Shown: piece after piece, positions 1 through 64,000 of the stretch
Position numbering within the stretch: position 1 is the first letter of the stretch
Layout of the letters: each line of letters starts with the position of its first letter
Assembly (NCBI GenBank): GCA_030651475.1
Contig: JAUSEW010000027.1
Coordinates: forward strand, 41,553 to 105,552
Direction: 5' to 3'
Origin: Candidatus Levyibacteriota bacterium
GTDB taxonomy: Bacteria; Patescibacteriota; Microgenomatia; Levybacterales; UBA12049
Length of the DNA stretch: 64,000 nt
Notes under the pieces: generated by a model
What the model was told of the DNA's origin: nothing
Databases searched by the model: none
The model's input: only the letters and a program-made list of their open reading frames with translations
Program-made: the position numbers and the translations under genes

Positions 1-933
1 ATACCCGCTATATTTGAGAAACAATATGTTATCGGTCTTGAAATTTTTAATTTGAATACTAATTTCCCGGATTTATATCAATTAATTTTTCCTTCATGGG
101 GATCAGGTTTTTTTGGAACAAATATGGCTACAGAAATGTCTATCCAAATAGGAGTAGCCAATATTTTTGCGGTATTTATAAGCCTATACGTTGGATACAT
201 GTTTTTTAGAAAGAAAAAAATAGAATATAGAATAATTTTCTTTTTTATAATATCTTTTATAATTCTTTTATTTTTAATGCAAAAAATTTCCTATCCGATT
301 TGGGCCAACATTCCGCTCGTAAATTATTTTCAATTTCCATGGAGACTTTTAAGCCTTGTTATATTAATCGCTTCATTTCTAGCAGGGAGTATTGTTTTTT
401 ATTGGAAGTCATGGGTTTTGACAATCATTATGATTGCTTTTACTTTTCTTTTGGGAATTGAATACGCAAAACCAGCGTATTATCACTATAGAGATGATTC
501 TTACTATATAACGCGATCTAATTTTATAGATGGAACTAATAGTCCTGGAAACGCGTTCAATACGATTTTTTTTAATGAGAATTTAAAGAAACAAACAAAT
601 AAGGCATTTTTTCTAAAAGGGGATGGCGTTATAACGTCCAAGAAAATTACCAGCAGCTTTTACAATTTTAACATAGAGACTAAATACGAATCGGAAATAG
701 GTATAAATACGGCATATTTTCCAGGATGGTCGGTGTTTGTTGATAGTAAAAAGGTTAAGGTAAATGTAACCCCTAATGGACTTTTTTCTTTCAAGCTTAA
801 TTCGGGAAATCATGACGTAAAAATAGAGTTTGGATCTACAAGTCCAAGAACGATTGGCACAATTTCATCCCTTGTTTTTATATTATTGAGTTTATTTTTC
901 TTAACTAAAGATTTTTTCGCTAGGAACAAATAA
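1..933 (+). CDS. YfhO-like GT-C membrane protein, C-terminal ~310 aa. The gene is 5'-truncated by the window edge (the frame is open from nt 1; the listed TTG 'start' at 52 is artificial).
   Basis: Several predicted TM helices. The C-terminal motif ...AYFPGWSVFVDSKKV...GNHDVKIEFGS... followed by a final TM helix is shared with the C-termini of 46713..50111 and 50482..52401. This matches my memory of the YfhO-family C-terminus. Confidence 0.45.
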   Translation: MPAIFEKQYVIGLEIFNLNTNFPDLYQLIFPSWGSGFFGTNMATEMSIQIGVANIFAVFISLYVGYMFFRKKKIEYRIIFFFIISFIILLFLMQKISYPIWANIPLVNYFQFPWRLLSLVILIASFLAGSIVFYWKSWVLTIIMIAFTFLLGIEYAKPAYYHYRDDSYYITRSNFIDGTNSPGNAFNTIFFNENLKKQTNKAFFLKGDGVITSKKITSSFYNFNIETKYESEIGINTAYFPGWSVFVDSKKVKVNVTPNGLFSFKLNSGNHDVKIEFGSTSPRTIGTISSLVFILLSLFFLTKDFFARNK

Positions 934-985
934 GCTAGAATATGCACTTTTTGATTTGGAATAAGAGCTCTATATTGCTGGGGGT

Positions 986-1927
986 CTATTTAGACGTATA
1001 CTTAATTATGCTTTTTACAATATATTTTGGTCGTTGTTTAACTTCTTCAAAGATTTTTCCTATATACTGTCCCAAAACACTAATTCCCAGGAGTTGAATC
1101 GCGCCGATGAATAAGACGATAACAAGAATAGTAGTTGTTCCTTGAGGAGTATTTGGCAGTAGAAATCTTAAAATTATTTGTACTATCATTGCGACAAGAG
1201 CGATAATAAAAACAGCGAACGAGACAAGAGTCATAATTTCTAAAGGAACATAGGAAAAAGAAAAAATTCCTTTTGATGCCCAATTAAGATTTTTAAGGAA
1301 ATTGTTAGTAGTTTTTCCAAACATTCTTTCAGGACGCATATAAGGAACACCTATTTGCTTAAATCCTACCCATGCGCGTATTCCTCTTAGAAATCTATCT
1401 CTTTCAGGAAACGTTTTGATTATCTTTACTACTTTTTCATCAATCAAGGAGAAATCTCCAGCATCAAGAGGAATACGAATGTAAGACATCATATGAAATA
1501 TTCTGTAGAACAATTTATACAGAATTGACATATAGAGAGGTGCGTCTCTTTCTGTTCTTACTCCATATACAACATCATATCCTTCTTGCCATTTTTTATA
1601 GAATTTTTCTATAATTTCCGGAGGATCTTGGAGATCTCCATCTAGAAGCACAACCGCATCCCCGGATGCAATCTCCATCCCGCTTGTAAATGCCATTTGA
1701 GAATTGAAGTTTCTTGAATGATTTACCCCAATTACATGTTTGTCTTTTTTAGCTAATTGTTCTAGTACTTTTTCTGTATTATCCGGGCTACCATCATTTA
1801 CGAAAATTATTTCGTAATCCACTCCTATTTTTGTGAATACAAAGGACAGCCTTTTATGCATAATAGGAATTGCCTGTTCGTCTTTGTAGCAGGCAATAAT
1901 TGCAGATATTTTCTTTTTCACAGCCAT
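986..1927 (-). CDS. GT2 polyprenyl-phosphate sugar synthase (GtrB/CsbB/ArnC/DPM1-like) with C-terminal TM helices
   Basis: N-terminal GT-A motifs: ISAIIACYKDEQ...EIIFVNDGSPDNT...LLDGDLQDPPE. Two C-terminal hydrophobic helices. Confidence 0.8.
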   Translation of the reverse strand: MAVKKKISAIIACYKDEQAIPIMHKRLSFVFTKIGVDYEIIFVNDGSPDNTEKVLEQLAKKDKHVIGVNHSRNFNSQMAFTSGMEIASGDAVVLLDGDLQDPPEIIEKFYKKWQEGYDVVYGVRTERDAPLYMSILYKLFYRIFHMMSYIRIPLDAGDFSLIDEKVVKIIKTFPERDRFLRGIRAWVGFKQIGVPYMRPERMFGKTTNNFLKNLNWASKGIFSFSYVPLEIMTLVSFAVFIIALVAMIVQIILRFLLPNTPQGTTTILVIVLFIGAIQLLGISVLGQYIGKIFEEVKQRPKYIVKSIIKYTSK

Positions 1928-1931
1928 AATT

Positions 1932-2444
1932 TTATCTTCTTAAATTAATATACCACGGATCTTTACTTTTTATCATCTTTTTAACTACTTCCGGAATTTC
2001 TTGTAAGGTTTTTGGCCATTCCGCCTGAATGTTTTTAAATATTTTCATTATCTGTTTGTCTTCTTCCGCCCAATGACAAAGGGCATGGTCCAGATAATCT
2101 TTATTTCTTCCAGATCCTACTAATTTGACTGGAATTTGTTCATAATCAATATAGTTTCTAATTGTTTCAAATGGACGATAGAGAAGAAATGAACTCATTG
2201 AATAAACAATAGGTATTTTACCTTCTAAGGCGAGGCCTACTGCAATTCCCATCATAGCTTGTTCTGCGGCTCCGCAATTTATAAACCTCTTGGGGAAGTC
2301 CTGTCGTATGCGATCAAATACCTTATATCCTAAGTCGCCAACAACTAACCATATTTTAGGATTTTTCACCATGTTTTTATAAAGCTCATAAGCGAACCAT
2401 CCCCGCATGCTTTCGTGTCTGTATTTTATATCAAATCCCATCAT
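1932..2444 (-). CDS. Transketolase, C-terminal subunit (split transketolase)
   Basis: Pyrimidine-binding/C-terminal transketolase-like sequence (GIAVGLALEGKIPIVYSMSSFL...). A 4-nt ATGA overlap with the upstream N-terminal subunit gene. Confidence 0.7.
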   Translation of the reverse strand: MMGFDIKYRHESMRGWFAYELYKNMVKNPKIWLVVGDLGYKVFDRIRQDFPKRFINCGAAEQAMMGIAVGLALEGKIPIVYSMSSFLLYRPFETIRNYIDYEQIPVKLVGSGRNKDYLDHALCHWAEEDKQIMKIFKNIQAEWPKTLQEIPEVVKKMIKSKDPWYINLRR

Positions 2445-3103
2445 TTTAATAATTCTAAAGCTTTTTCATAATCCTGATTTGTCATAATGTAGTAATGAGC
2501 ATCTTGACCTTTTAAGAAAGGCAGCTGCTGAACATCTGTTCGTTTAATGATGATGTCTGGGCAAAATGCTTTTAGTCTTTTTATTAATTCCATAGAATTA
2601 ATTTTACCGTAAGCTCCATATCCGTTAAGGTTTACGTACACCTTTAAATTATCTAAATTGTTGTCTGTTTTTATTCTCAATGCTTCCCAAATAGATCCTT
2701 CAGCTGCCTCTCCGTCGCTTATCATGCAATAAACATTCTTTGTCTTATTAGCCATTGCCATGCCTAAGGCAATCGGTAAGCCTTGTCCAAGACTTCCAGT
2801 CGTGCACCATATGCCATTTTTTTCATCTCTGCCGGCATGTATCCCATGTTTTTTTAGCAGATATTCTGGATTTCGTCTTTCATGTTTTTCCAAAACACAA
2901 TAGAGAGCAATAGCAGCGTGTCCCTCGGATAATATAAATTTTTCACCTTTTCTTTTCAAATTATATATTTCTTCTATAATATCCAGAGCGGTTAAGCAAC
3001 TCCCTATGTGAGTTTTTTTATATTTATAGGATATTTCAATTATTCTTTTTTTTAAGTCTTTATTTTTCATATAATTTAAGGTACCATTTATAAGTTTCCT
3101 CAA
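2441..3103 (-). CDS. Transketolase, N-terminal TPP-binding subunit (split transketolase)
   Basis: GHAAIALYCVLEKH...GSLGQGLPIALGMAMA thiamine-diphosphate binding motifs. The real start may be the internal Met (MKNKDL...), which would reduce the 44-nt overlap with the downstream gene. Confidence 0.7.
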   Translation of the reverse strand: MRKLINGTLNYMKNKDLKKRIIEISYKYKKTHIGSCLTALDIIEEIYNLKRKGEKFILSEGHAAIALYCVLEKHERRNPEYLLKKHGIHAGRDEKNGIWCTTGSLGQGLPIALGMAMANKTKNVYCMISDGEAAEGSIWEALRIKTDNNLDNLKVYVNLNGYGAYGKINSMELIKRLKAFCPDIIIKRTDVQQLPFLKGQDAHYYIMTNQDYEKALELLK

Positions 3104-4010
3104 GACCTTTTTCTAGACTAAACTTAGGTTTCCATTTTAGGAGTGTTTTGGTTTTTGAGATATCGGCAACCCAGTGTTGAGTGTCCCATATTCTTGTTGG
3201 ATATGCGCCTTTTTCTATTTTAACTTTCTTTTCAGTTATTTGAAAAAGCATTTTTATTACCTCATCATTGGTATATTCAATTCCAGTTCCCATATTTAAT
3301 ATCTGACCTGACAATTTTTTTCCATAGGATAAAGTTTTAATATACATATCAACAACATCTTTTATGTAGATAAAATCTCTGCGTTGTTTTCCTGGAGTAA
3401 GATTTATCGATTTGTCTTCAATTGCAGCTTTGATAATAGTGGGGATGAACCTGTCTTTCTCTTCATATTGTCCGTAAACGGAAAACGGTCTAAGGGTTAC
3501 GATTGGTTTTTTATATTCCCTTGCAAACACCTGACATAGAAGCGTAGCTGATGCTTTAGTAGCGGCATAAAAGCTTATGGGTTCAAGCAAGTCCTTTTCG
3601 TTCATTGGCTTATTTTTAAATCCGTATTCGGAAGAGGAACCTGTATTTATAAATATTGCATAATCAATATCCTTACTTGCCATAAGAAGATTAAGAGTGC
3701 CTTGGATATTAAGATTAATCATTTGTTTTATTGCCTGTTGGTTTCTGTAATTGCTATAAGTTGCTAGATGAATTATGATATCCGGTTTAATTTTACTTAC
3801 TGTTTTGGAAAGCCTTAGGCTGTCAAGAAGATCTATTTTGTATACTCTAATTTTAGAAACTATGTTTTCTAACCTCCAAAGGTCTGTATTTTTTCTTACG
3901 ATAAGATTAATATTATAACCTGTCTTCAGAAGCCGCCTAATCAAATTTGCTCCTATAAAACCAGCTCCTCCGGTAACAAGAACAGTTTTATTTGCTATAA
4001 TACTTTTCAT
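3060..4010 (-). CDS. NAD-dependent sugar-nucleotide epimerase/dehydratase (extended SDR)
   Basis: N-terminal VLVTGGAGFIGANL Rossmann motif and YAATK (YxxxK) catalytic motif. Confidence 0.75.
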   Translation of the reverse strand: MKSIIANKTVLVTGGAGFIGANLIRRLLKTGYNINLIVRKNTDLWRLENIVSKIRVYKIDLLDSLRLSKTVSKIKPDIIIHLATYSNYRNQQAIKQMINLNIQGTLNLLMASKDIDYAIFINTGSSSEYGFKNKPMNEKDLLEPISFYAATKASATLLCQVFAREYKKPIVTLRPFSVYGQYEEKDRFIPTIIKAAIEDKSINLTPGKQRRDFIYIKDVVDMYIKTLSYGKKLSGQILNMGTGIEYTNDEVIKMLFQITEKKVKIEKGAYPTRIWDTQHWVADISKTKTLLKWKPKFSLEKGLEETYKWYLKLYEK

Positions 4011-4905
4011 GGTTGATATTATATGTGCTTTGTGCGGTAAAAATCAACGTACAGAAGTTTTATACAAATCTACATTTAACAAAAGGCAGATAACTAGCGT
4101 TACTTACTCGGCGCGCAGACCTCCAGACAGAATTCATTATAAGATACTTAAATGCCAGAAATGCGGATTAATTTTCTCATCCCCTGTTCTTGAGCCTTCA
4201 AAAATAACAGAATTCTACAGAGAGAGCGTTTGCAGCTACGATGAACAAATCCCTTATCTTATTAAGGCATACATGAGAGAATTTCAGCGGATAGAACCTT
4301 TCTTACCCCAAAATCCAAAAATTTTAGAGATAGGATGCGGAAACGGATTTTTTCTTGAAGCGCTAAAGAAAAGGGGGATAAAAGATTTGTTTGGGGTAGA
4401 ACCTAGTCCGAAAATGGTTTCCGAGGCGCCTTCATATCTCAAAAAGAGGATTACTAGCGATGTTTTTAAGCAAAAACAATTTCCGAATAATAATTTTGAT
4501 GCTGTTTTATGTTTTCACACTCTAGATCATGTTGTCAATCTAAATAAATTCATTAAATCGGTTCGAGAAATTCTTAAACCCGGAGGATTTATTTTTTTTG
4601 TTGTACACAATACAGATAGTATATTTGCAAAACTCTTTGGAGAAAAATGGCCCATTTTTGATATTGAACACATAGTCCTTTTTAACAAGAAAACCCTACG
4701 CACTTTATTTTCTAAACACCAATTTATAAATATTCAGACACTTGATGTTAGAAACTTTTACCCTCTTTCTTATTACGTGAACATGAGTCCAATATCTTTA
4801 AAAATCAAGAATATTTTATTAAATATATTGAATAAATTTAAACTGCAAAATATTAGTTTCCCTTTGGTCGGGAGCAACATTGGAATTATTGCGCAAAAAA
4901 AGTAA
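4009..4905 (+). CDS. Class I SAM-dependent methyltransferase with N-terminal CxxC...CxxC zinc ribbon (short paralog of the TylC3-like C-methyltransferase at 23820..25055)
   Basis: CALCGKN...CQKCG zinc ribbon, then LEIGCGNGFF motif I. The ATG start overlaps the start codon of the divergent gene at 4008-4010. Confidence 0.6.
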   Translation: MVDIICALCGKNQRTEVLYKSTFNKRQITSVTYSARRPPDRIHYKILKCQKCGLIFSSPVLEPSKITEFYRESVCSYDEQIPYLIKAYMREFQRIEPFLPQNPKILEIGCGNGFFLEALKKRGIKDLFGVEPSPKMVSEAPSYLKKRITSDVFKQKQFPNNNFDAVLCFHTLDHVVNLNKFIKSVREILKPGGFIFFVVHNTDSIFAKLFGEKWPIFDIEHIVLFNKKTLRTLFSKHQFINIQTLDVRNFYPLSYYVNMSPISLKIKNILLNILNKFKLQNISFPLVGSNIGIIAQKK

Positions 4906-4943
4906 ATTTTGCTTAAAAAATCCTGCTTTGCTAGAATAAAGAT

Positions 4944-6017
4944 ATGGATATAGCTATTGACGTATCCCCGCTGATTGACGCTCGTAATCTTGCGCATAGA
5001 GTCCGGGGCACAGGATTTTATATAGAAAATCTTAAAAAATCCTTATTGCAATATTATCCACGCAATAAGTATACTTTTTTTACTCGAGGTGAAAATTTAC
5101 CCAAAGATACGGATTTGGTGCATTATCCTTATTTTGAACCATTCTTCTTAACATTACCAATTTACAAAAAATATAAGACAATAGTAACCGTTCACGACTT
5201 AACGCCTTTAGTTTTTCCGAAATTTTTTCCAAGAGGTATAAAAGGAGAACTGAAATGGCAGTTGCAGAAAATCGCCTTACGTAGGGCGGATGCTATAATT
5301 ACAGATTCGCAATCCTCGAAGAAAGATATCGTTAAGAAAGCTGGCATCTCGGACAGTAAAATAAATGTAGTATATTTAGCAGCAACAGAGAGCTTTAGGA
5401 AATTTAATCCTTTCGATCGTAGAATAGCTAAGGTAAAAAAGAAATTTGGTTTACCCGATAAGTTTATATTATACGTTGGAGATGTGACATGGAATAAGAA
5501 CTTGCCTAGGCTGGTAGAAGCGGTAAATAAAATAAACCTACCTCTTGTTATGGCGGGCAAAGCTTTAGTCGATAAATATTTCGATAAGACCAATCCATGG
5601 AATCAAGATCTGATTAAAGTTCAAGAGTTAGCTAAAGGAAGAAATAATATTTTTAGTTTGGGTTTCGTTGAGACGGAGGATTTAGTATCTTTATATAACT
5701 CAGCTACACTTTTCACTATGCCTTCGATATATGAAGGATTTGGTTTGCCAATTCTTGAAGCAATGCAATGCGGATGCCCGGTTGTTACTACGAAAGAAGG
5801 ATCAATACGAGAAGTTACAGGAGAAGCAGGTTTTTACGTTGACGCTTACGATATTAACGATATTTCTAATGGTATAAAAAAAGTGTTTACGAGCGATACT
5901 CTTGGGGAGGAGTTATCTAAAAAAGGGATCATTCAAGCAAAAAAGTTCTCCTGGGAAAAAACCGCAGAAGAAACCCTTAATGTATACAAAAAAGTAGTAA
6001 TGGATGCCACAATTTGA
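4944..6017 (+). CDS. Glycosyltransferase, GT4 family (GT-B fold)
   Basis: C-terminal EGFGLPILEAMQCGCPVVTT E-x7-E region and the typical GT4 two-domain layout. Confidence 0.8.
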   Translation: MDIAIDVSPLIDARNLAHRVRGTGFYIENLKKSLLQYYPRNKYTFFTRGENLPKDTDLVHYPYFEPFFLTLPIYKKYKTIVTVHDLTPLVFPKFFPRGIKGELKWQLQKIALRRADAIITDSQSSKKDIVKKAGISDSKINVVYLAATESFRKFNPFDRRIAKVKKKFGLPDKFILYVGDVTWNKNLPRLVEAVNKINLPLVMAGKALVDKYFDKTNPWNQDLIKVQELAKGRNNIFSLGFVETEDLVSLYNSATLFTMPSIYEGFGLPILEAMQCGCPVVTTKEGSIREVTGEAGFYVDAYDINDISNGIKKVFTSDTLGEELSKKGIIQAKKFSWEKTAEETLNVYKKVVMDATI

Positions 6018-6571
6018 TATCATATCTTAAGATGGAATTTATTAATATTTTAAATAAGGACAAATCCACGATCATTCAAGATGTCATTATGCACCCCTTA
6101 AAGATTAATAAGGATGAATCCGGGATATTGGTTGAGACTCTTAGAACGGATTGGTCTGATATTTACGGTAAAGGTAGAGAATTTGCGATGCAGTATTACT
6201 CTGTTACTCCAAGTGGAATCGCAAGGGATGAAAAAGTATGGCATTATCATCCGACAGTTCAGGAAGACAGATTTTTGGTTATCCAGGGATCAATAATGGT
6301 GGCAATAGCAGATAATCGTGAAGATTCTTCAACTTACGGATTACTCAATCTTTTCCATATGAAGGTTGATGATAATCCTTATGTTCTGTTAATTCCCAAA
6401 AAGGTTTTTCACGGTTTTATGGTAGTTTCTAAAGAACCAGCCGTTCTTCTTAATTTTCCAACTTCTCTTTATAGTCCAAAAGAGGAAGGCAGGATTTCCC
6501 ACAAAGAAGCCCAAATAAAGCTTCCTGATGGATCCTTATTCTCATGGGATAGCGTGCGAAAAAATCTATGA
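6014..6571 (+). CDS. RmlC-like cupin (sugar-nucleotide 3,5-epimerase or 3,4-ketoisomerase-like)
   Basis: ~185 aa. KDESGILVETLR and WHYHP motifs resemble dTDP-4-dehydrorhamnose 3,5-epimerase/cupin sugar isomerases. I cannot tell epimerase from ketoisomerase by eye. Confidence 0.45.
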   Translation: MISYLKMEFINILNKDKSTIIQDVIMHPLKINKDESGILVETLRTDWSDIYGKGREFAMQYYSVTPSGIARDEKVWHYHPTVQEDRFLVIQGSIMVAIADNREDSSTYGLLNLFHMKVDDNPYVLLIPKKVFHGFMVVSKEPAVLLNFPTSLYSPKEEGRISHKEAQIKLPDGSLFSWDSVRKNL

Positions 6572-7830
6572 GAAAAAAAATCCATCAGGTTATCGCGCAT
6601 CCCCTTATTTCAGGAAGTATAATAATTTTTCTTGGTTCATTATCGGCAAATATATTTAATTTTCTTTTTAACATTTTCATGAGTAGAAATCTTACGTTCT
6701 CCGATTATGGGGCATTGGCCAGCCTTATATCGATAATTACGCTTTTTGGTTTTTCGGCGGCAGGAATTGTTCCAACCATTGTTCGGTTTACAGGATCGTA
6801 TTTTGCTAAGGGAAATCTAGCATCAGTGAGGGGATTGTTCTTAAGAATGAACAAAATACTTTTTCTGGTTGGAGCAGTAATTTTCGCCATTTTTGTCTTA
6901 TATAGTCGCAATATAGGAGAGTTTTTTAGGATTAGTGATGAGTTTTTAATTATTCTTGTGGGGCTGAATGTTTTCGCGGGTTTTATCTTTATCATAAATC
7001 AAGCATTGCTTCAGGCAAAGCTGGATTTTATTTTTCTTTCAATAGTAATTTTTATAGGAGCTTTTTTAAAGTTTGTTGTTGGTGTTTCGCTGGTTTTTAC
7101 TGGATTTGCAGTGGGTGGCGCAATGTTGGCATTTTTCGTTGCAGGCTTGATTCCTTATTGTTTAACGTTTCTGCGCTTGCCTTTTTTGCTTCATCGAAGC
7201 GAAAAAAAAACTGTTATTAATTTCGTAACGATGTTCAAATATGCGGGTCCTGCAACATTGGCGTTTTTAGGACTTACTTCATTTATCTCAACAGACATTA
7301 TATTGGTAAAGCACTTTTTTGATCCGATACAGGCAGGAATATATGCGACCCTCTCTCTAATTGGAAGAGTCATTTTCTTTTTCTCGGCTCCTATTGGAAC
7401 GGTTATGTTTCCTCTTATTGTGCAGAAACATACGAAAAAAGAAAGTTATCATTCAATATTCGTCTTGTCTCTACTGCTGGTTTTTGTTGCTTCGGCACTT
7501 TTAACAATTTTCTATTTCTTATTCCCAGAGTTCATGCTATATGTTTTTAGCAAAAAAGAGGAAACAATTCTTGCTGCTCCGCTTGTTGGCTTTTTTGGAA
7601 TGTACGTAACTACGTATTCAATGCTTTTCATATGCACTAATTTCTATTTATCTATTAAAAAAACAAAAGTGTTTATTCCTGTACTTTTTGGGGCTATCCT
7701 TCAAGGAATATTAATATGGTTTTTCCATGAAACTTTTTTTCACATAATCGCTATTTCGCTTGGCATTACGGGTTTACTTCTTATTTTGCTTTTGCTATAT
7801 TACCTAAAGCTTTATGGCGAAACAAAATAA
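6568..7830 (+). CDS. Wzx-like polysaccharide/oligosaccharide flippase (MOP superfamily)
   Basis: 420 aa with about 12 hydrophobic helices and no soluble domain. The N-terminus is typical of polysaccharide biosynthesis (Wzx) proteins. Confidence 0.6.
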   Translation: MRKKIHQVIAHPLISGSIIIFLGSLSANIFNFLFNIFMSRNLTFSDYGALASLISIITLFGFSAAGIVPTIVRFTGSYFAKGNLASVRGLFLRMNKILFLVGAVIFAIFVLYSRNIGEFFRISDEFLIILVGLNVFAGFIFIINQALLQAKLDFIFLSIVIFIGAFLKFVVGVSLVFTGFAVGGAMLAFFVAGLIPYCLTFLRLPFLLHRSEKKTVINFVTMFKYAGPATLAFLGLTSFISTDIILVKHFFDPIQAGIYATLSLIGRVIFFFSAPIGTVMFPLIVQKHTKKESYHSIFVLSLLLVFVASALLTIFYFLFPEFMLYVFSKKEETILAAPLVGFFGMYVTTYSMLFICTNFYLSIKKTKVFIPVLFGAILQGILIWFFHETFFHIIAISLGITGLLLILLLLYYLKLYGETK

Positions 7831-13030: not shown

Positions 13031-13031
13031 T

Positions 13032-14438: not shown

Positions 14439-14441
14439 ATT

Positions 14442-20329: not shown

Positions 20330-20346
20330 AATTTTTCCTATTTGTA

Positions 20347-21932: not shown

Positions 21933-21935
21933 AAG

Positions 21936-29390: not shown

Positions 29391-29393
29391 TGT

Positions 29394-33989: not shown

Positions 33990-34062
33990 GTTAGTATTGT
34001 AACAAATTGAACGCTCGTGGTCTATTGCAAACTAGTTGTTATTGCATTAAAATAAAGCCTAC
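33990..34062. promoter_or_regulatory. Divergent intergenic region; candidate promoters for 33045..33989(-) and 34063..35274(+)
   Basis: 73-bp AT-rich gap between divergent genes. Confidence 0.25.
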
Positions 34063-45009: not shown

Positions 45010-45010
45010 C

Positions 45011-55812: not shown

Positions 55813-55827
55813 AAGATAACAAAGTAA

Positions 55828-56715: not shown

Positions 56716-59700
56716 AAATATTACGTTTCATTTCGAATAATTTTTTGTTTCTGATTACTCTTTTTCTGCTGGCGTTTATTCCTCTTTATCCCAAACTGCC
56801 TATTGTTAATGTACAGCATACCTGGGTTTATATCCGCGCAGAAGACTTTATCGTTACGCTTGTTGTTATTCTATGGATTTTCTTACTCTTGCTTAAGAAA
56901 GTTACGCTAAAAACCCCGCTTACCTTACCTATAATATTATTTTGGCTTGCTGGCGGAATAGCAACTCTTCATGGGGTGCTTTTCATTTTCCCAACACTTT
57001 CGGACGTTTTTTCCAACGTAGCATTTTTAAGCTTTCTAAGAAGGATAGAATATATATTTTTATTCTTCATTGCTTTTACAAGCATAAAAGAAAAAAAGTT
57101 TATATCTTACGTTACTATTGGGTTGGCGGTTACGCTCCTTCTAGTTGTAGGATACGGTTTGGGGCAGAAATTTTTAGGATTTCCTGCGTATTTGACAATG
57201 AATGAAGAATTTGCCAAAGGAGTTCCTATTCAGCTGTCAGAGCTTTCTCGAATTCCATCTACATTTGCAGGTCATTATGATTTGGCAGCCTATTTGGTTT
57301 TGATAGTTCCTTTAATCACAAGTATGGTTTTCGGATTTAAAAACTGGTTTGTAAAGATGTTCTTATTGGGTACGGCAGCTTTGGGTTTTGTATTGCTTGC
57401 TATGACGGTATCTAGGGTTTCCTTTTTCGTACTCTTAATTTCTATGGTCGTGATGCTTATCTTGCAAAAAAAAAGACTGCTTATTATATCTTTATTTTTA
57501 ATAGTTATTGTATTTTTAAGCTTTTCTTCAAGTCTTCTGCAGCGGTTCGGAAATACTCTCAAAGAAGTAAACGTATTGGTTGACGTAAACACAGGGGGAG
57601 CGATAGGCGAAGTAAAAGAAGTTCCTGCTAAATATTTTGAAAATAAAATTGTCAAAAGACAATTTATCTCAAATGAAGAAGCTAAACTATCTAGTGCATC
57701 TGCAATTCTGCCTTTCTCATTAATTCCTCCTGTGGCATCTCTTATAGTAGAACCAAATAGTCCGACCGGAGAAAATTTGCCGCAAGGAACAAGCTACGTA
57801 AACCTTCCTCTTTCTCCCATTACCAAAAAAGTACAGCAGTTCTTTTATCAAAAATCTAATAATAGGGGGGGAATAATAGCAGAGGAAATAACTGTTTCCT
57901 ACGGAGACTTTGTGATGAAGAAAGCTTTGGCCTATGATCTTTCATTTACGACCAGATTTCAGGGAGAATGGCCAAAAACGCTACTGGCTTTTACTCGAAG
58001 CATTTTTTTAGGAAGCGGTTATGGATCAGTTAGCCTTGCCGTAGATAATAATTACTTGCGAATTTTGGGAGAAACGGGAGCATTTGGATTTATCTCTTTC
58101 TTATCGATTTTCTTAATTGCAGGCATATATATAAAAAAAATACTTCCAAACGTAGATTCCCCTATTGTCCGAAGCTTCATCTTAGGTTTTATCGCCGGTA
58201 CATTCGGATTATTATTAAATGCACTTCTTATCGATGTCTTTGAGGCATCGAAAATTGCTTTTACATACTGGCTTCTAATGGGAGTAACGCTTGGAACCTT
58301 AGAGCTATATAGAAAAGAAGAAATAGATCTTTATCAAAATTTCAAAAAAGTAGTAATTTCCACGTACGCAATTATTATTTATCTATTTACAATTATGATA
58401 GGATTATTCTCTTCTGCTTTCGGTTATTATTTTGTTGGCGATGACTTTACCTGGTTTAGATGGATTGTGGATTGCTATAGCGGAGCCATTAAAAATGGGT
58501 TACAACAATGTCAGCCTTTTGCCATAACGATTATTCAGTACTTTACGCAGGCTGATGGATTTTTTTACCGCCCGGGAGCAAAATTGTACTTTGATTTGAT
58601 GTATTCAGTATTTTGGCTTAATCAATCAATGTATCATTTCGTTTCATTTTTTCTTCATTTTTCCGTTGCAGTATTGGTATTCTTGATTTCTAAAAGGATT
58701 TTAAAAAATTATTTCTTGGCTATTGTTAGCGGCGTATTTTTTCTTATACTTAGCGGAGGATCTGAAGCGATTTTTTGGATTTCTTCTACGGGTTTTCTTT
58801 TTAACGCAATGTTCGCTCTTCTTGGATTACTCTTTTTTATTTATTGGAAGGAAAGAGGAAAAATAATTTACCTTGTTATTTCCTGCGTCTCCATTGCCTT
58901 AAGCTTATTATTTCACGAACTTGGAATTATGGCGCCATTTCTCGTAATTCTTTACGATACTGTTTTTGGAGAAAAATCCGCAGCAAATAAATTATCTAGG
59001 AAATCATCCTATCTATTTTTACTATCCCCAATTTTGCCCTATCTGATTTTACGCCTCGTAGCGGGAAGTCATTGGTTCAATGGTGACTATAGCTATAACT
59101 TACTTAAGCTTCCGTACAATATTATCGGCAATGCAATTGGATATATAATGCTTACTTTTTTTGGACCCGCATCCTTATCTTTTTATGAGGGGTTAAGGAA
59201 TTTCTCAAGAGCGCATTCAATATTTGCAATAGTAGCGTCACTTATTATGATTTTCCTTATTATTAAATTTTATCGACTGGTGGTTAAAAACATAGATTTG
59301 GAAGAGGAAAAAATTGTGACCTTTGGATTTTTGTTTTTCATATTAGCGCTATTACCGTTTCTAGGACTAGGCAACATTGCCTCTCGCTATAGTTATCTGT
59401 CTTCCTTTGGACTTATGATTCTTTTTGTATTCTTTCTCAAAAAAGCATATGGTTATTTACTTTTTAACGGTAAATATATCGCCATGTCAAGCGTAGTTTT
59501 AATAGCGATTATCTTTAGTATGGCGCAACTTTTTCAATTGCAAAAATTAAGTTCAGATTGGCGAGTAGCCGGTGAAAAGTCACAAAATTTTCTTATATCT
59601 CTTAATAAAGTTTATACGGAGGATTGGGCAAAGGAACACGTTCAATTGTATTTTGTTGATACCCCAATTCGAAACGGAGAAGCATGGATATTCCCCGTTG

Positions 59701-59870
59701 GGCTTCCCGATGCAATATGGCTTACTGTAAAAAACAATAATCTTTCAATTTTCCAGCCTTCAAATTTACAGCAAGCTTTAGATCAGGCGGGAACATCATC
59801 GAATGCAAAAGTTTTAAAGTTTGATAGCGATGGAAATATTACAGAAGTATTTAGAGTAAAAACACAATGA
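56712..59870 (+). CDS. Fusion membrane protein: N-terminal O-antigen polymerase/ligase-like (Wzy_C/WaaL-like) domain plus C-terminal GT-C-like multi-TM domain (1052 aa)
   Basis: Residues ~1-520: about 10 TM helices, a large extracytoplasmic loop, then VDNNYLRILGETGAFGFISFL (cf. the HNxYL..L.E.G..G Wzy_C signature). Residues ~540-1052: a second ~12-TM domain beginning FGYYFVGDDFTWFRW (DD motif), paralogous to 37458..39092. Confidence 0.5.
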   Translation: MKILRFISNNFLFLITLFLLAFIPLYPKLPIVNVQHTWVYIRAEDFIVTLVVILWIFLLLLKKVTLKTPLTLPIILFWLAGGIATLHGVLFIFPTLSDVFSNVAFLSFLRRIEYIFLFFIAFTSIKEKKFISYVTIGLAVTLLLVVGYGLGQKFLGFPAYLTMNEEFAKGVPIQLSELSRIPSTFAGHYDLAAYLVLIVPLITSMVFGFKNWFVKMFLLGTAALGFVLLAMTVSRVSFFVLLISMVVMLILQKKRLLIISLFLIVIVFLSFSSSLLQRFGNTLKEVNVLVDVNTGGAIGEVKEVPAKYFENKIVKRQFISNEEAKLSSASAILPFSLIPPVASLIVEPNSPTGENLPQGTSYVNLPLSPITKKVQQFFYQKSNNRGGIIAEEITVSYGDFVMKKALAYDLSFTTRFQGEWPKTLLAFTRSIFLGSGYGSVSLAVDNNYLRILGETGAFGFISFLSIFLIAGIYIKKILPNVDSPIVRSFILGFIAGTFGLLLNALLIDVFEASKIAFTYWLLMGVTLGTLELYRKEEIDLYQNFKKVVISTYAIIIYLFTIMIGLFSSAFGYYFVGDDFTWFRWIVDCYSGAIKNGLQQCQPFAITIIQYFTQADGFFYRPGAKLYFDLMYSVFWLNQSMYHFVSFFLHFSVAVLVFLISKRILKNYFLAIVSGVFFLILSGGSEAIFWISSTGFLFNAMFALLGLLFFIYWKERGKIIYLVISCVSIALSLLFHELGIMAPFLVILYDTVFGEKSAANKLSRKSSYLFLLSPILPYLILRLVAGSHWFNGDYSYNLLKLPYNIIGNAIGYIMLTFFGPASLSFYEGLRNFSRAHSIFAIVASLIMIFLIIKFYRLVVKNIDLEEEKIVTFGFLFFILALLPFLGLGNIASRYSYLSSFGLMILFVFFLKKAYGYLLFNGKYIAMSSVVLIAIIFSMAQLFQLQKLSSDWRVAGEKSQNFLISLNKVYTEDWAKEHVQLYFVDTPIRNGEAWIFPVGLPDAIWLTVKNNNLSIFQPSNLQQALDQAGTSSNAKVLKFDSDGNITEVFRVKTQ

Positions 59871-61339
59871 AAAAGCTTGAGACTCTTATTTTATTTTTAA
59901 TTCTCATAGGCGGATTTATAGTAAGATTTTATAATTTCAGTAGTCCTGTTGCGGATTGGCATTCGTGGCGTCAGAGCGACACGTCGGCAGTTTCCAGAAA
60001 TTTTATCAAGTTTGGTTTTGATATTCTGCATCCGCGCTTTGACGATTTATCAAATGGAGTTTCTTTAATAGATAATCCTAATGGACATAGATTTGTGGAA
60101 TTTCCTATTTATAATGTTTTTCAGGCAGGACTGTTTAAATTTTCTGCACATTGGACTTTGGAGGAATGGGGAAGAATTGTTACTATATTTTCTTCATTAA
60201 CTGCAGTTGTCTTTCTCTATTTATTGCTTAAGAAACATATCTCCGCTCGTGCAGGTTTGATAGGAGCATTCTTTTATGCTTTTGTTCCATATAACATTTA
60301 TTTCAGCCGAACTATTCTTCCGGATCCTTTGATGATCGCATTTTTCTTAGGAGGTTTATTCTTCTTTGACCAGTATCTGGATGGAAAATCTACCGGAGGC
60401 AAGTATACATATTATCTATTGGCAATAATACTAACCGCAGCAGCACTTCTTATGAAACCATTCGTGGTTTTTTTCTTTTTGGCATATTTGTATCTAATCT
60501 TTATGGAAAGGGGATTAGCGGGTTTTAAGAGGTTGGATGTATGGTTATTTTTTATTATTTCTATAGCGCCGTTTATTCTTTGGAGAGTGTGGATGCAGCA
60601 ATATCCGGAGGGAATTCCGCAGAGTAATTGGCTATTTAACGGAACAGGAATAAGATTTAAGGGAGCGTGGTTTTGGTGGATTTTTGCAGAAAGAATAGCG
60701 CGTGAGATGCTTGGATTTTGGGGATTGCCATTTGTCGTATTGGGAATGATAGCAAAGACAGGGAAGAAAGAAGGATGGTTCTTTTTAACCTTTGCTGCAT
60801 CATCTTTGGCTTATCTTACGGTTTTTGCCACAGGCAATGTTCAGCATGATTACTACCAAATTCTTATAGTTCCTGCTCTTGCTATATTTTTCGCAAAGGG
60901 AATTGACTGGGCGCTTTCTTTAGCTAGCGATCGTATGCAGTATTTAATTACATTATCCGTTATTACCGTAACTACATTATTTATGTTAATGTTTGGGTGG
61001 TTTGTGGTAAGAGATTTTTATTCGATACAGCATCCTTCTATAATTGAGGCCGGTCAGGCAGTTGATATGCTTACTCCAAAAGACGCAAAAGTTATCGCTC
61101 CGTACAATGGAGATACGACATTTTTATATTTCACAAAAAGACAGGGATGGCCTGTTTTTGAGAGGACGCTTAAAGAGTTTAAGAAAGCAGGAGCATCTCA
61201 TATCGCATTTGCCGATCCAACCAAAGAAGAATTAAATTTCCAAACGTTATTTAAACCGGTAGCTATAACAGCAACGTACGCAATATTCGATCTCAATAAG
61301 CCAACCCCGCAAGGCTTACTGGAACAGAAAAAGAACTAA
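59867..61339 (+). CDS. GT-C membrane glycosyltransferase, PMT_2/ArnT-like (GT39/GT83-like)
   Basis: VADWHSWRQSDTSAVSRNF after TM1 matches the D..HsWRQ.DT..iaRnf consensus of the PMT_2/ArnT-like family as I remember it. About 12 TM helices. Confidence 0.6.
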   Translation: MKKLETLILFLILIGGFIVRFYNFSSPVADWHSWRQSDTSAVSRNFIKFGFDILHPRFDDLSNGVSLIDNPNGHRFVEFPIYNVFQAGLFKFSAHWTLEEWGRIVTIFSSLTAVVFLYLLLKKHISARAGLIGAFFYAFVPYNIYFSRTILPDPLMIAFFLGGLFFFDQYLDGKSTGGKYTYYLLAIILTAAALLMKPFVVFFFLAYLYLIFMERGLAGFKRLDVWLFFIISIAPFILWRVWMQQYPEGIPQSNWLFNGTGIRFKGAWFWWIFAERIAREMLGFWGLPFVVLGMIAKTGKKEGWFFLTFAASSLAYLTVFATGNVQHDYYQILIVPALAIFFAKGIDWALSLASDRMQYLITLSVITVTTLFMLMFGWFVVRDFYSIQHPSIIEAGQAVDMLTPKDAKVIAPYNGDTTFLYFTKRQGWPVFERTLKEFKKAGASHIAFADPTKEELNFQTLFKPVAITATYAIFDLNKPTPQGLLEQKKN

Positions 61340-61340
61340 G

Positions 61341-62534
61341 ATGAAAATATTGCTCGTATCATCATTTTTGCCCTATCCTCTTTATTCCGGCGGGCACATC
61401 CGTTTATACAATCTCATAAAAGGTTTATCCGGAAAACACAAGATAACTCTTGTCTGCGAAAAAAGAGATTATCAAACAGAAAAGGATGTTTTGGAGGTAG
61501 AAAAAATTTGTGAAAAGGTAATAACGGTTGATAGAAGAAAACAGTGGTCTTGGCAAAATATAGCAGTATCAGGTTTCTCTATAAATCCATTTTTAGCAGT
61601 TGGCCACACGAATAATGATATGAGAAACAAAATTGGCGAATTATTAAGCAATACGGATTTTGATTTAATTCACGTTGAAACTTTTTACGTTTTGCAAAAT
61701 GTACCCCAGACTAAAATCCCTATTGTTCTAGCAGAGCATAATATAGAGCATTTAGTTTATGAGCGTTTTGCCAAAAATGCGCCCTTTTTTATAAAGCCGT
61801 TTCTGTATGTAGATATCGCTAAGATGAAATATCAAGAACAAAAGGCTTGGGATAGAGCAGGAAAGTTAATTGCGGTATCAAGTCAGGATAAAGAAATGAT
61901 GGGAAAAAGAAACGTTGAGATCGTATCAAACGGAGTAGACATTAATAAGTTTAAAGTTAGAAGTGAGAAGTCAGAAGTTGAAGGTTCTGAGAAGAGAATT
62001 TTGTTTATTGGCGATTTTAAATGGATAGAGAATAGAGATGCGGTCAAATGGATATTAAAGGAGATATGGCCTGAAATAAAATCAAAAATCAAAAATCAAA
62101 AATCAAAATTAATACTTTGGATAGTTGGGAGAAGGATTCCGCAAGAGATTAGAAATTTAGGAGGAGAAAATGTTATTTTTGATGAGAATGCTCCGGAAAA
62201 TACTAATTTAATTTACCAGAAAGCAGATGTATTGTTAGCGCCAATTCGAGTTGGAGGAGGAACAAGCTTTAAAATTCTGGAGGCAATGGCAAGCGGAGTG
62301 CCTGTTGTCACAACAGATCTTGGAAATTCGGTTAATGCACAAGCGGGCAGGGAAATTATTATTGCAGAAAATTCATCGGATTTTGCAAAAAAGACAATAG
62401 AAATTTTAACCAATAACAAGGCTTATATAGATATTGCAAATAACGCAAGAAAATTCATAGAAGAAAATTATACTTGGGAAAAAATTATTAAAAAATTAGA
62501 AGCGGTTTATGAGGAGGCAGTTAAAAATGATTGA
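61341..62534 (+). CDS. Glycosyltransferase, GT4 family
   Basis: GGGTSFKILEAMASGVPVVTTDLGN motif and GT-B layout. Confidence 0.8.
   Translation: MKILLVSSFLPYPLYSGGHIRLYNLIKGLSGKHKITLVCEKRDYQTEKDVLEVEKICEKVITVDRRKQWSWQNIAVSGFSINPFLAVGHTNNDMRNKIGELLSNTDFDLIHVETFYVLQNVPQTKIPIVLAEHNIEHLVYERFAKNAPFFIKPFLYVDIAKMKYQEQKAWDRAGKLIAVSSQDKEMMGKRNVEIVSNGVDINKFKVRSEKSEVEGSEKRILFIGDFKWIENRDAVKWILKEIWPEIKSKIKNQKSKLILWIVGRRIPQEIRNLGGENVIFDENAPENTNLIYQKADVLLAPIRVGGGTSFKILEAMASGVPVVTTDLGNSVNAQAGREIIIAENSSDFAKKTIEILTNNKAYIDIANNARKFIEENYTWEKIIKKLEAVYEEAVKND
62078..62105. repeat. (AAAATCA)x4 heptanucleotide tandem repeat inside the GT4 CDS
   Basis: aaaatca aaaatca aaaatca aaaatca read directly. Encodes KSKIKNQKSKL. 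Confidence 0.9.
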
Positions 62535-63432
62535 TTTATCAATAATAATCGTTAATTACAATACGAAGGTTTTTCTAAAGAATTTATTAGATTCGATTGA
62601 GAAGTCTATTTCAAAAAAGATTACCTATGAAGTTATTGCTGTTGATAATGCATCAACTGATGCTTCGGCATCAGCAATTTCCAATTTCCAATTTCCAATT
62701 TCCAATTTACGACTGATTATAAACAAAAAGAATTTGGGGTTTGCGAAAGCGAATAATCAGGGAATAAGAGCTTCACAGGAAAGCCGTTACCTTTTATTTC
62801 TAAATCCCGATACTTTGATGCAGGAAAATACAATTGAAGAAATGATTAAGTTTATGGACACACATGAAGACGCAGGCGCAGCTACGTGCAAAATCGTAAT
62901 GCCAAATGGAGAGATTGATGATGCAAGCCATCGGGGTTTTCCAACGCCTTGGAACTCATTTTCGTATTTTTCCGGTTTTTCAAAAATATTCCCAAAATCA
63001 AAATTATTTAGCGGGTACAATTTGGGATGGATGGATTTTGGGAAAGCGCATGAAATAGATGCCTGCGCAGGAGCATTTATGGTAGTAAGACGTTCAGCTG
63101 GAGAAGCGATTGGCTGGTGGGACGAAGATTATTTTTTTTATGGAGAAGATTTGGATTTTTGCTATATGTTAAAACAAAAAGGCTGGAAGGTTTATTACGT
63201 CCCGCAAGTTTGGATATTGCATTACAAAGGGGTTGCCGGAGGAATTAAGAAAATTTCGCAGAATATTAGTACGGCAGATTTGGAAACCAAAAGAAGAGCA
63301 ACCAAAGCAAGATTTTCTGCCATGAAAATCTTCTACAAAAAACACTATGAAAAAAAATATCCCAAAATCACAACCTGGCTTGTTAAGCTGGCAATAAACC
63401 TAAAATTACGTTTAGCTATGAAGAATGCGTAG
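62527..63432 (+). CDS. Glycosyltransferase, GT2 family
   Basis: LSIIIVNYNTKVFL...VIAVDNASTDAS...GFAKANN...FLNPDTLM motifs. The start is set at the ATGATTGA overlap (62527) rather than 62509. Confidence 0.75.
   Translation: MIDLSIIIVNYNTKVFLKNLLDSIEKSISKKITYEVIAVDNASTDASASAISNFQFPISNLRLIINKKNLGFAKANNQGIRASQESRYLLFLNPDTLMQENTIEEMIKFMDTHEDAGAATCKIVMPNGEIDDASHRGFPTPWNSFSYFSGFSKIFPKSKLFSGYNLGWMDFGKAHEIDACAGAFMVVRRSAGEAIGWWDEDYFFYGEDLDFCYMLKQKGWKVYYVPQVWILHYKGVAGGIKKISQNISTADLETKRRATKARFSAMKIFYKKHYEKKYPKITTWLVKLAINLKLRLAMKNA
62677..62704. repeat. (ATTTCCA)x4 heptanucleotide tandem repeat inside the GT2 CDS
   Basis: atttcca x4 followed by attt, read directly. Encodes SNFQFPISNL. Confidence 0.9.
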
Positions 63433-63434
63433 GT

Positions 63435-63977
63435 TTAAAGAGCTTTTTTCCATGTTTTTGCGTGTCTACCTTTCCCAAATTTATCAGGTAAGAACCCGTA
63501 ACTTTCATCACATACCCTATCGTAGAAACCCCAACTTGCTTTATATCGTGGTCCGCTATTGAGCACTAATTGTTTTTTTCCTAATTTTTTGGCTTCATTA
63601 CAGACTGCGGTGAATAGTTTTCTGCCAATACCTCCTCCCCTAAAAACTTCGCCCGAAACAAAATTATTCAATAACTCTATAGACAACTCAGGAGTAGTGT
63701 TGAAATGTCTAAGCATATCCGGATCGGGTTGAGAATAAGCAGTGCATCCTAAAACTTTTCCCGTCTCATCTTTTGCAACAAAATAAGTACGAGTTCTTCC
63801 GTATTGGTCTTGTCCGCCTTTCATATAGCGTTTTATGTCATCTATTTCATTTAGCAATATTTCACCAGCATCGCTTCTTACATGTTGTATCAATATTGGT
63901 TCTAGCTGAGCTATATCATTTTCCCCCAGGGGATGAATCTCTACATTTATAATTTTAGCTTGTTCTTCATTAGCCAT
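63435..63977 (-). CDS. GNAT-family N-acetyltransferase
   Basis: RGGGIGRKLFTAVCNEAKKLGKKQLVL acetyl-CoA-binding motif A region. Confidence 0.65.
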   Translation of the reverse strand: MANEEQAKIINVEIHPLGENDIAQLEPILIQHVRSDAGEILLNEIDDIKRYMKGGQDQYGRTRTYFVAKDETGKVLGCTAYSQPDPDMLRHFNTTPELSIELLNNFVSGEVFRGGGIGRKLFTAVCNEAKKLGKKQLVLNSGPRYKASWGFYDRVCDESYGFLPDKFGKGRHAKTWKKAL

Positions 63978-64000
63978 AAATAAATTATATCATAGCTTAT

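Follow-up and report, generated by a model that had tools for sequence, protein, structure and literature searches.

Transmembrane glycosylation of bacterial wall polymers follows a scheme in which a membrane GT2 enzyme produces a C55-P-sugar, which a flippase of the GtrA or Wzx type moves; a glycosyltransferase (GT) of the GT-C type then adds the sugar to the polymer (PMC8035078). The bacteria reviewed there have one to three such GT-A/GT-C pairs, scattered in the genome (PMC8035078). We describe here a 64-kb stretch of DNA, in the following called the window (64,000 nucleotides of contig JAUSEW010000027.1, assembly GCA_030651475.1, positions 41,553 to 105,552), from a Candidatus Levybacteria cell, an ultra-small groundwater bacterium of the Microgenomates group in the Candidate Phyla Radiation (CPR). 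Its genes are called g01 to g58. The window is probably part of the main cell-envelope glycan factory of this cell, which would consist of two layers, a core operon and an extracytoplasmic elaboration layer, with short repeats that would act as switches. The component types of CsbB/GtcA/YfhO, GtlA/GtlB, the Csd pairs, GacI/GacL and GtrABC are present here as well (for the flippase part g09 or the candidate g47), and the GT-C proteins are of the YfhO/PMT_2 type with an acidic loop motif. In contrast to the Gram-positive CsbB/GtcA/YfhO-type systems, nine GT-Cs and three donor synthases lie within 64 kb of a genome that is probably smaller than 1 Mb, and no member of the GtrA family is recognisable by sequence in the window.

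Other described systems share single aspects with this locus. [quoted passage not shown] The product of g46 shares the overall architecture of AftD: a GT-C domain is combined with a large, beta-sandwich-bearing ectodomain and a TM at the C-terminus. However, g46 and AftD share about 10% identity, and the lineage here belongs to CPR rather than to Actinobacteria. No UbiA or FAD_binding_4 (DprE1-type) protein of an arabinose donor pathway is found in the window, and g46 and its paralogue g48 are therefore regarded as AftD-like in fold and not as arabinofuranosyltransferases. Since the flavoprotein g18 belongs to the DAO family, an arabinofuranose donor is not indicated; g18 and g21 had been considered as DprE1/DprE2-like lipid-sugar epimerases, an idea that found no support, g21 being a weak short-chain dehydrogenase/reductase (SDR) match without a family and UbiA being absent. 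Compared with the Wzx/Wzy pathways for O-antigen or S-layer glycans (WaaL, PglL, WsaB), the WaaL-like module is here fused to a PMT/STT3-like GT-C in one protein of 1052 amino acids (aa), g54, a CPR cell has no lipid A-core acceptor, and no chain-length regulator was found in the window. As with ArnC/ArnT, the operon has a full-length ArnC match (g49) and, after it, PMT_2 enzymes of the ArnT family type, but g49 has no linked Ara4N pathway (ArnA, ArnB, ArnD), and lipid A is not to be expected.

The window holds 58 non-nested open reading frames (ORFs), is 98.2% coding with a widest gap of 246 bp, and has a GC content of 0.32-0.37. All ORFs were scanned against Pfam and selected ones against NCBIfam, which gave a glycan-related assignment for 55 of the 58; only g16 (DUF5667), g42 and g47 lack one. 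A first-pass annotation, made from the letters of the window, had described a low-GC locus with minimal intergenic space, nearly every ORF of which would be glycan-related, with a DUF5667-like protein, nine GT-C proteins and three GtrB/CsbB-like synthases, and had suggested a CPR-type or other Gram-positive-type lineage. The gene content is borne out, and so is the CPR lineage, by the exact proteins being on record from a Candidatus Levybacteria metagenome-assembled genome (MAG). Its count of 18 cytoplasmic GTs has to be lowered to 16: there are 12 GT2 proteins (g02, g10, g19, g22, g23, g26, g35, g38, g44, g49, g53, g57) and seven GT4 proteins (g07, g11, g13, g36, g50, g51, g56; g50 is an N-domain only, yet counted), from which the three ArnC/GtrB-like synthases are set aside. 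Nine polytopic GT-C-type proteins (g01, g12, g17, g25, g37, g46, g48, g54, g55) with ten GT-C-type modules and one Wzx-like flippase (g09) are present besides. A further 26 enzymes tailor sugar nucleotides: four of the DegT family, one of them RfbH-like (g34, 373 bits at a cut-off of 423), seven SDR epimerase/dehydratases including PseB/FnlA-like and LegB/RmlB-like 4,6-dehydratases, four methyltransferases (among them one of the NDP-hexose C-methyltransferase type) and two hexapeptide acyltransferases. Single genes encode a GNAT, a sugar N-formyltransferase, a carbamoyltransferase, a WbqC-like protein, an RmlC-like cupin, a TIM-barrel epimerase-like protein and a DAO-family flavoprotein, and a split transketolase-like pair accounts for the last two. 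No match came from scans of the window for Rfam families, tRNA genes and terminators. Long direct or inverted repeats (>30 nt) are conserved GT motifs common to paralogues and nothing else. Independently assembled contigs of run SRR13727527 show a sequence identical to that of the window, and the glycan locus runs past both window ends.

The right end of the window opens a core operon of about 13 genes, the order of which is conserved across 80 Microgenomates genomes. A scan of one genome per GTDB species gave 292 relatives of g54, and the best 80 were examined with 10-kb flanks; almost all come from Levybacteria, some from Gottesman-, Roizman- and Woesebacteria. Presence was counted for genes in the same order and orientation over the eligible genomes, and the counts are given with the genes.

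53567..54124, plus strand: g50, stand-alone GT4 N-domain of 185 aa (Glyco_transf_4 only), first gene of the core operon; found as an ORF of its own in 60 of 63 genomes
54129..56715, plus strand: g51, GT4 (66 of 66), g52, hexapeptide acetyltransferase (71 of 71), and g53, GT2 (68 of 73), core operon; Pfam
56712..59870, plus strand: g54, WaaL/Wzy_C-like and PMT/STT3-like GT-C fusion of 1052 aa; fold, orthologue and profile matches
59867..61339, plus strand: g55, PMT_2 GT-C of 490 aa, core operon (PMT_2 40.3 bits); 74 of 75
61341..63432, plus strand: g56, GT4 (71 of 71), and g57, GT2 (62 of 68), core operon; Pfam
63435..63977, minus strand: g58, GNAT acetyltransferase; Pfam

Each of g50-g57 and of two downstream GT4 genes (64 of 65 and 59 of 61) is found in 91-100% of the eligible genomes. 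They are followed by a ManC-like nucleotidyltransferase (54 of 59), a small Bac_transf priming phosphoglycosyl transferase (50 of 57) and a DUF4012 protein (42 of 54), which are present in 78-92%. In this organism g58 is an insertion, on the opposite strand, that separates g57 from the core-operon GT4 coming next, a position at which it is absent in the sibling loci examined. The start of the gene after g58 corresponds to the N-terminus of the first GT4 downstream (60% identity), and thus the core operon continues beyond the window. The priming enzyme that is missing from the window probably lies in this continuation; in siblings the Bac_transf protein (E = 2e-62) is encoded about 10 kb downstream of the g54 start. 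The DUF4012 protein of about 640 aa closes the operon (for example L004 20903-22831 and L036 21594-23162). The first gene, g50, adjoins the complete GT4 g51 and shares about 40% identity with the N-terminus of the downstream GT4. Upstream of the core, g48 is a neighbour in 39 of 48 genomes, g49 in 35 of 58 and g46 in 9 of 44, and the junction between g49 and g50 is an insertion site in other genomes. Promoter-like matches upstream of g50 did not exceed chance level.

All nine polytopic candidates are of the GT-C type. Besides g54 and g55, these are the following, with g16, the neighbour of g17.

1..933, plus strand: g01, YfhO/PTPS_related GT-C, C-terminal 293 or more aa, truncated at the window start (YfhO 29.4 bits, cut-off 28.5)
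9690..11876, plus strand: g12, GT-C of the PMT_2/PMT family, 728 aa (PMT_2 37.4 bits, cut-off 26.1; PMT 26.4 bits); nine predicted TM, WDE at residues 49-51 after TM1
15513..16100, minus strand: g16, signal-anchored DUF5667 protein (36.7 bits)
16097..18343, minus strand: g17, GT39/PMT_2 GT-C of 748 aa with a large C-terminal extracytoplasmic part (PMT_2 63 bits, PMT 42 bits)
25109..26740, minus strand: g25, GT-C of the PMT family, 543 aa (PMT 37.1 bits, cut-off 22.7); nine predicted TM, SDD at residues 54-56
37458..39092, plus strand: g37, GT-C of a PMT_2-related family, 10 predicted TM; family members match PMT_2
46713..50111, plus strand: g46, AftD-like GT-C of 1132 aa; AlphaFold (AF2) model, Foldseek, orthologue Pfam matches
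50482..52401, plus strand: g48, short AftD-like GT-C of 639 aa, paralogue of g46 (blastp E = 1e-7)

Five of the nine (g01, g12, g17, g25, g55) are assigned by direct Pfam matches, g46 and g48 by the AftD fold and Pfam matches of orthologues, and g37 and g54 by PMT_2 matches of orthologues, profile comparison and fold. These assignments show GT-C enzymes and not the transporters or unrelated families as which the multi-TM proteins might have turned out. The modules of g12, g17, g25, g37, g46, g48 and g55 have 7-11 predicted TM, and an acidic motif follows TM1 in all eight candidates with an N-terminus inside the window, g01 being truncated there (g12 WDE, g17 PDE, g25 SDD, g55 SD, g37 QDE, C-terminal half of g54 GDDFTW, g46 HDSG, g48 GGDW). 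The full g01, on the identical contig L001, has 544 aa, nine predicted TM and a PTPS_related match with a weak YfhO match. Further upstream on that contig, beyond g01, lies a partial polytopic protein (L001 4707-5408, 234 aa, at least eight predicted TM) that none of the GT-C family profiles built here matches significantly and that may be a tenth GT-C-type gene outside the window. The NCBI name of g17 is 'glycosyltransferase family 39'. The profile of g25 matches the g55 family at 92% (hhalign).

Sequence searches of the PDB, with single sequences and with profiles, gave no useful match for g37, g46, g48 and g54, and structure prediction took the place of these searches. A model of g46 built from 89 homologues (predicted local distance difference test, pLDDT, 86.7) matches the mycobacterial AftD structure 6wby over its whole length (Foldseek E = 1.4e-15; TMq 0.43-0.46 against 6wby and 6w98), and STT3 subunits rank next. 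The protein has an N-terminal GT-C domain with an invariant D37, a helical DUF5667 segment (residues 672-750, about 48726-48962), beta-sandwich domains that match domains of the carbohydrate-binding module (CBM) type in Foldseek, and a C-terminal TM (1102-1131). The AftD family PF11847 (GT-C_AftD) is not matched by g46 itself in the Pfam scan, and is matched by 7 of 22 orthologues (best E = 7.6e-11); DUF5667 is found in 11 of the 22. The family profile of g48 aligns with the g46 N-domain at 99.5% probability (E = 7.6e-23). DUF5667 occurs in two settings, as the separate g16, always beside the GT39 g17 (an adjacency retained in L085, L086 and L087), or as the helical segment inside the AftD-like g46. 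This occurrence suggests that it is an extracytoplasmic accessory module of GT-C enzymes.

The GT-C candidate g54 is built of two parts. A WaaL/Wzy_C-like module, which has a beta-rich outer domain, spans residues 1 to about 540, and a PMT/STT3-like GT-C module follows from about 541 to 1052; structure comparison gives a WaaL-like fold for the N-terminal half and a GT-C fold of the PMT/STT3 type for the C-terminal half, with about 22 predicted TM over both. There is no Pfam match for g54 itself and the NCBIfam match to the IctB family is weak, yet 10 of 17 orthologues match Wzy_C (best E = 7.8e-6). In the N-terminal half the arginines R110, R180, R235, R278, R415 and R450 are invariant. In the C-terminal half the GDDFTW motif is largely invariant, its two aspartates fully so. 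This half is homologous to g37 (blastp E = 3e-14, profile match 99.3-99.8%), which has no direct Pfam match itself; its family comprises 1927 cluster representatives, and PMT_2 is matched by 14 of the 41 members sampled. Residues D32, E33 and W34 of g37 are near-invariant after TM1, and its family profile reaches the PMT_2 family of g55 at 90%. A direct comparison of the C-terminal half of g54 with the g55 family was not significant (hhalign, 9.7%), so that its tie to PMT_2 runs via the larger g37 family. The Wzy_C matches of orthologues together with the g37/PMT_2 homology identify g54 as a WaaL-GT-C fusion, which at least 292 species-level genomes have conserved.

Enzymes for donors of such GT-Cs, and candidates for their flipping, are present as well.

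986..1927, minus strand: g02, GtrB/ArnC-like polyprenyl-phosphate sugar synthase, GT2 with C-terminal TMs (Glycos_transf_2 E = 1.3e-24; TM at residues 221-267)
6568..7830, plus strand: g09, Wzx-type (MOP) flippase (Polysacc_synt_3 35 bits, cut-off 23; MatE), 10 predicted TM
18423..22931, mixed strands: g18 FAD oxidoreductase (plus), g19 GT2 (minus), g20 TIM-barrel sugar epimerase-like protein (minus), g21 weak SDR (minus) and g22 GtrB-like synthase (minus); Pfam
50108..50485, plus strand: g47, small protein of 125 aa with four TM, candidate GtrA-type lipid-sugar flippase from size, topology and position
52394..53320, plus strand: g49, ArnC/GtrB-like polyprenyl-phosphate sugar synthase, full-length ArnC match, two predicted C-terminal TM

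Over residues 2-289, g49 matches ArnC 9hwj (E = 7e-43) and GtrB 5eke (2e-26), and it also has a full-length match to DPMS 5mlz (4e-18). The synthase g22 matches GtrB 5eke over its full length (residues 14-313, E = 3.5e-27) and ArnC at 2.8e-19, and g02 is paralogous to both g49 and g22 (E about 1e-19). A fourth candidate, g44, was rejected, as it matches only TarS/TarP N-domains in the PDB despite two C-terminal TMs. Synthases and GT-Cs are paired within modules (g01-g02, g17 to g22, g46-g47-g48-g49), and the pairings are retained in L001, L083, L085 and L087. In other Microgenomates, g17 orthologues carry a fused GT2 domain whose closest similarity is to g49 (E = 5e-22), and this fusion lends Rosetta-stone-type support to the cooperation of synthase and GT-C. 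The fused proteins (P0403-P0411, 1113-1213 aa, from Daviesbacteria and other Microgenomates) carry the ArnC/GtrB-like GT2 N-terminal of the GT39 part, and some also carry a methyltransferase domain. With three synthases and these GT2-GT39 fusions, the context fits nine GT-Cs that would use lipid-phosphate-linked sugar donors on the outer face of the membrane. For g47, Pfam and NCBIfam give no family match. All 13 of 13 loci have, in the space separating the g46-like from the g48-like gene, an ORF that codes for 107-177 aa and 3-5 predicted TM (L004, L007, L011-L013, L016, L020, L038, L051, L070, L073-L075), poorly conserved in sequence; from size, topology and position, a GtrA-type flippase is plausible.

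A further feature of the core operon resembles the contingency loci of Haemophilus, Neisseria, Campylobacter and Helicobacter, where GT genes for lipooligosaccharide, capsule and lipopolysaccharide likewise carry short tandem repeats within their frames, with a unit that is not a multiple of three. In those bacteria a change in copy number frameshifts the gene. Tandem Repeats Finder and additional scans of our own detected six tracts of period 7 in the window, all in GT genes of the core operon.

54219-54254 and 54802-54838: heptamer tracts in g51
55982-56019: heptamer tract in g53
61947-61978 and 62073-62117: heptamer tracts in g56
62669-62716: heptamer tract in g57

Two of the six are perfect (AAAATCA, 4.4 copies, and CAATTTC, 4.9 copies). 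The other 54 kb of the window hold no tract of period 7, lags 4-6 and 8-11 gave none in the window, and 50 Markov shuffles gave zero. Among the related loci (1.51 Mb), period 7 accounts for 54 of the 56 perfect short tandem repeats (L003-L083), and nearly all of these lie inside orthologues of g48, g50, g51, g53, g55, g56 and g57 or in the downstream GT4s. The tracts recur at the same codon positions with differing units; in g57, for example, CAATTTC is replaced by AAATCTC at the same place in a sibling sequence of 84% identity. In g50 of the window a GC-rich insert without repeats stands where relatives carry a heptamer tract. One related contig (L018 2-139) opens with 19.7 copies of ATAACGA, far longer than the intragenic tracts. 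As a unit of 7 is not a multiple of three, the pattern matches that of simple-sequence contingency loci, and judged from these sequences the GT genes of the core operon are candidate phase-variable loci. In contrast to the loci of the bacteria named above, the unit here has 7 nt and not 1-5, the copies number about 4-6, and the candidate switches are those of free-living or episymbiotic groundwater CPR.

The part of the window to the left of the core, g01-g49, is a mosaic of modules conserved only in close relatives. In the sibling MAG GCA_964414015.1, g08-g27 are collinear at 59-95% amino-acid identity and g49-g57 at 66-93%, and the counterparts of g46 and g48 share only 39% and 49% identity; judged by these values, the AftD-like pair is replaced in this close relative. 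Another relative retains g36-g49, and a more distant one only the sub-module g22-g21-g20-g19-g18 together with g17 and g16; the set g16-g22 is syntenic in L085 and L087. A metagenome scan with g17 returned a single 3-kb locus. The first-pass annotation had treated the window as one super-locus system; given the different conservation of g50-g57 and g01-g49, it is better described as a lineage-wide core operon plus exchangeable modules. The left 53 kb would, from their enzyme families, supply unusual donors, namely amino, N-formyl, N-acetyl, C-/O-methyl, carbamoyl and 3,6-dideoxy-type sugars. The remaining genes of this part are as follows.

1932..3103, minus strand: g03 and g04, transketolase-like thiamine-diphosphate enzyme split into a half that binds pyrimidine and one that binds TPP (Transket_pyr, Transketolase_N, TPP_enzyme_C; partial NCBIfam transketolase matches)
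3060..6571, mixed strands: g05 SDR epimerase/dehydratase (minus), g06 S-adenosylmethionine (SAM) methyltransferase (plus), g07 GT4 (plus), g08 RmlC-like cupin (plus; TIGR01221 rmlC E = 8e-13, below cut-off); Pfam
7814..9738, plus strand: g10 GT2 and g11 GT4; Pfam
11873..15494, plus strand: g13 GT4, g14 PseB/FnlA/CapD-like UDP-GlcNAc 4,6-dehydratase (NCBIfam PseB E = 4e-54, below cut-off), g15 DegT aminotransferase; Pfam
23069..25055, mixed strands: g23 GT2 (plus) and g24, NDP-hexose C-methyltransferase type (minus; Methyltransf_13, Methyltransf_14, E = 2e-56)
26849..35274, mixed strands: g26 GT2 and the sugar-nucleotide pathway block g27-g34, with three SDRs, FkbM methyltransferase, DegT aminotransferase, 4,6-dehydratase, hexapeptide acyltransferase and RfbH-like 3-dehydrase (g30 is LegB/RmlB-like by NCBIfam); Pfam
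35234..37453, plus strand: g35 GT2 and g36 GT4; Pfam
39092..40165, plus strand: g38 GT2; Pfam
40232..43835, minus strand: g39 sugar N-formyltransferase, g40 WbqC-like, g41 methyltransferase, g42 weak beta-propeller glycoside hydrolase-like (weak Pfam and NCBIfam matches only), g43 DegT; Pfam
44005..46735, plus strand: g44 GT2 with two C-terminal TMs and g45 NodU/CmcH-type carbamoyltransferase; Pfam

The pair g03/g04 shares its module with the GtrB-like synthase g02, the YfhO-like GT-C g01 and the SDR g05. This context hints at an unusual branched or chain-extended sugar, and g03/g04 might act in making a branched or higher-carbon sugar.

How could these parts work together? They would fit a combination of a Wzx/Wzy-ligase route with multi-component transmembrane glycosylation. 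The priming enzyme and the GT2/GT4 enzymes would build a glycan on undecaprenyl pyrophosphate at the inner membrane face, the glycan would be flipped to the outer face, and the WaaL-like module of g54 would transfer or polymerise it. On the other branch, g02, g22 and g49 would load single sugars onto polyprenyl phosphate, which may be flipped by g47 or g09, and the nine GT-Cs (PMT_2-, YfhO- and AftD-type and the C-terminal half of g54) would add these sugars to the growing polymer. Slippage of the heptamers probably switches individual transferases on and off, so that the surface glycan would vary within the population. Several points weigh against such a scheme. The window holds no Wzz/PCP protein and no LCP (LytR-CpsA-Psr) ligase, and by Pfam no priming transferase, which is found in sibling genomes only. 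The only clear flippase, g09, lies 46 kb away from the core operon, and g47 has no detectable family membership. WaaL-like modules may act on proteins too (PglL, PilO, WsaB), and genes may lie side by side in a very compact genome without forming one pathway. For the switching, the copy numbers are only 3.4-5.7, and 8 of 10 frameshifts lie away from tracts and may be assembly errors.

The nature of the acceptor is the point at which a different reading has to be weighed. If g54 were an O-oligosaccharyltransferase like PglL, PilO or WsaB and the PMT_2 enzymes acted like actinobacterial Pmt, the locus would serve general protein O-glycosylation of S-layer, pilin or other surface proteins, as the first-pass annotation had proposed. 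The Wzy_C family does include protein O-oligosaccharyltransferases and the PMT family protein O-mannosyltransferases, both module types meet in g54, one source names a g54 orthologue 'protein O-mannosyl-transferase', and CPR cells are known for abundant pili and S-layers. However, no gene for a pilin, S-layer or other protein acceptor was found in the 64 kb or in the 10-kb flanks of the 80 related loci; the genes with names in these flanks code for GTs, ManC, the priming transferase and DUF4012. The 16 cytoplasmic GTs with nine GT-Cs exceed the needs of any known protein O-glycan. The CBM-like ectodomain of g46 and the discoidin domains carried by some g37 relatives point to a glycan acceptor instead. 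We therefore favour a wall- or membrane-anchored heteropolysaccharide and regard protein O-glycosylation as unlikely. It is also conceivable, and in our view quite improbable, that several unrelated glycan pathways, for example for a wall polysaccharide, a lipoglycan and a capsule, are adjacent merely because the genome is small and gene-dense. Such an accidental arrangement would agree with the unequal conservation of core and left modules (1466 hits in the g54 search; 54 in the g17 search, about 27 of them full-length orthologues), with the replacement of the AftD pair between close relatives, with the location of g08-g27 and g46-g57 on different contigs in GCA_964414015.1, and with several strand switches and seven gaps >60 bp in the window. 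Yet three synthases have to serve nine GT-Cs, with one Wzx flippase and no priming transferase in the window, so that the modules cannot all be self-sufficient, and the g46-g48 module adjoins the core operon in many genomes (the counts for g48 are given above).

A similar question concerns the repeats, which might be neutral by-products of slippage or of a local bias in loop-coding regions, with the glycan genes being constitutive. Low copy numbers, the degenerate state of several window tracts and the fact that tract-bearing orthologues are nearly all in frame would suit this explanation. It agrees less well with the enrichment of period 7 alone, with nothing at neighbouring lags, with the use of different units at the same codon positions in proteins of 50-85% identity, and with the restriction to GT genes of a single operon. 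Moreover, frameshifts fall exactly on a tract in two orthologues (L016 g50 and L074 g56; 2 of the 10 junctions seen), although the tracts cover about 0.1% of the sequence, and the contigs of the independent SRR13727527 assembly end inside three of the window tracts. Neutral tracts are thus somewhat doubtful as an explanation, and a core operon with candidate heptamer switches, feeding a glycan of the envelope, is the reading we prefer. The proposal that the locus is an undescribed glycosylation system holds in part: its arrangement, the WaaL-GT-C fusion and the lineage speak for it, but every component is of a known kind, and the fusion, the operon arrangement and the lineage are the only undescribed aspects. 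Our searches of full texts, which leave out most subscription journals, brought up no account of this operon, of a fusion of Wzy_C with PMT_2 or of repeats that frameshift CPR glycosyltransferases.

CPR bacteria, or Patescibacteria, account for much of bacterial diversity and live attached to other cells; hardly any have been cultured, and to our knowledge essentially nothing is known of their surface chemistry. A genome that is probably smaller than 1 Mb (a complete Levybacteria chromosome has 762,565 bp) devotes here at least 64 kb to a complex surface glycan, which may vary within the population via repeat slippage. The interest of the locus rests less on the number of GT-C genes than on the core operon with its fusion protein, the exchangeable modules and the candidate heptamer switches. 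The core with the WaaL-GT-C fusion is common to Microgenomates, which makes it a candidate both for marking the lineage and for use as a target in labelling or enrichment. Tentatively, Microgenomates might share a previously undescribed core envelope-glycan machine, in which a WaaL-like en-bloc transferase is fused to a PMT-like single-sugar GT-C and accessory GTs are switched by heptamer slippage. If this is true, ultra-small CPR cells would gain a stochastically variable sugar coat, for example for escape from phages or for changed attachment to their hosts.

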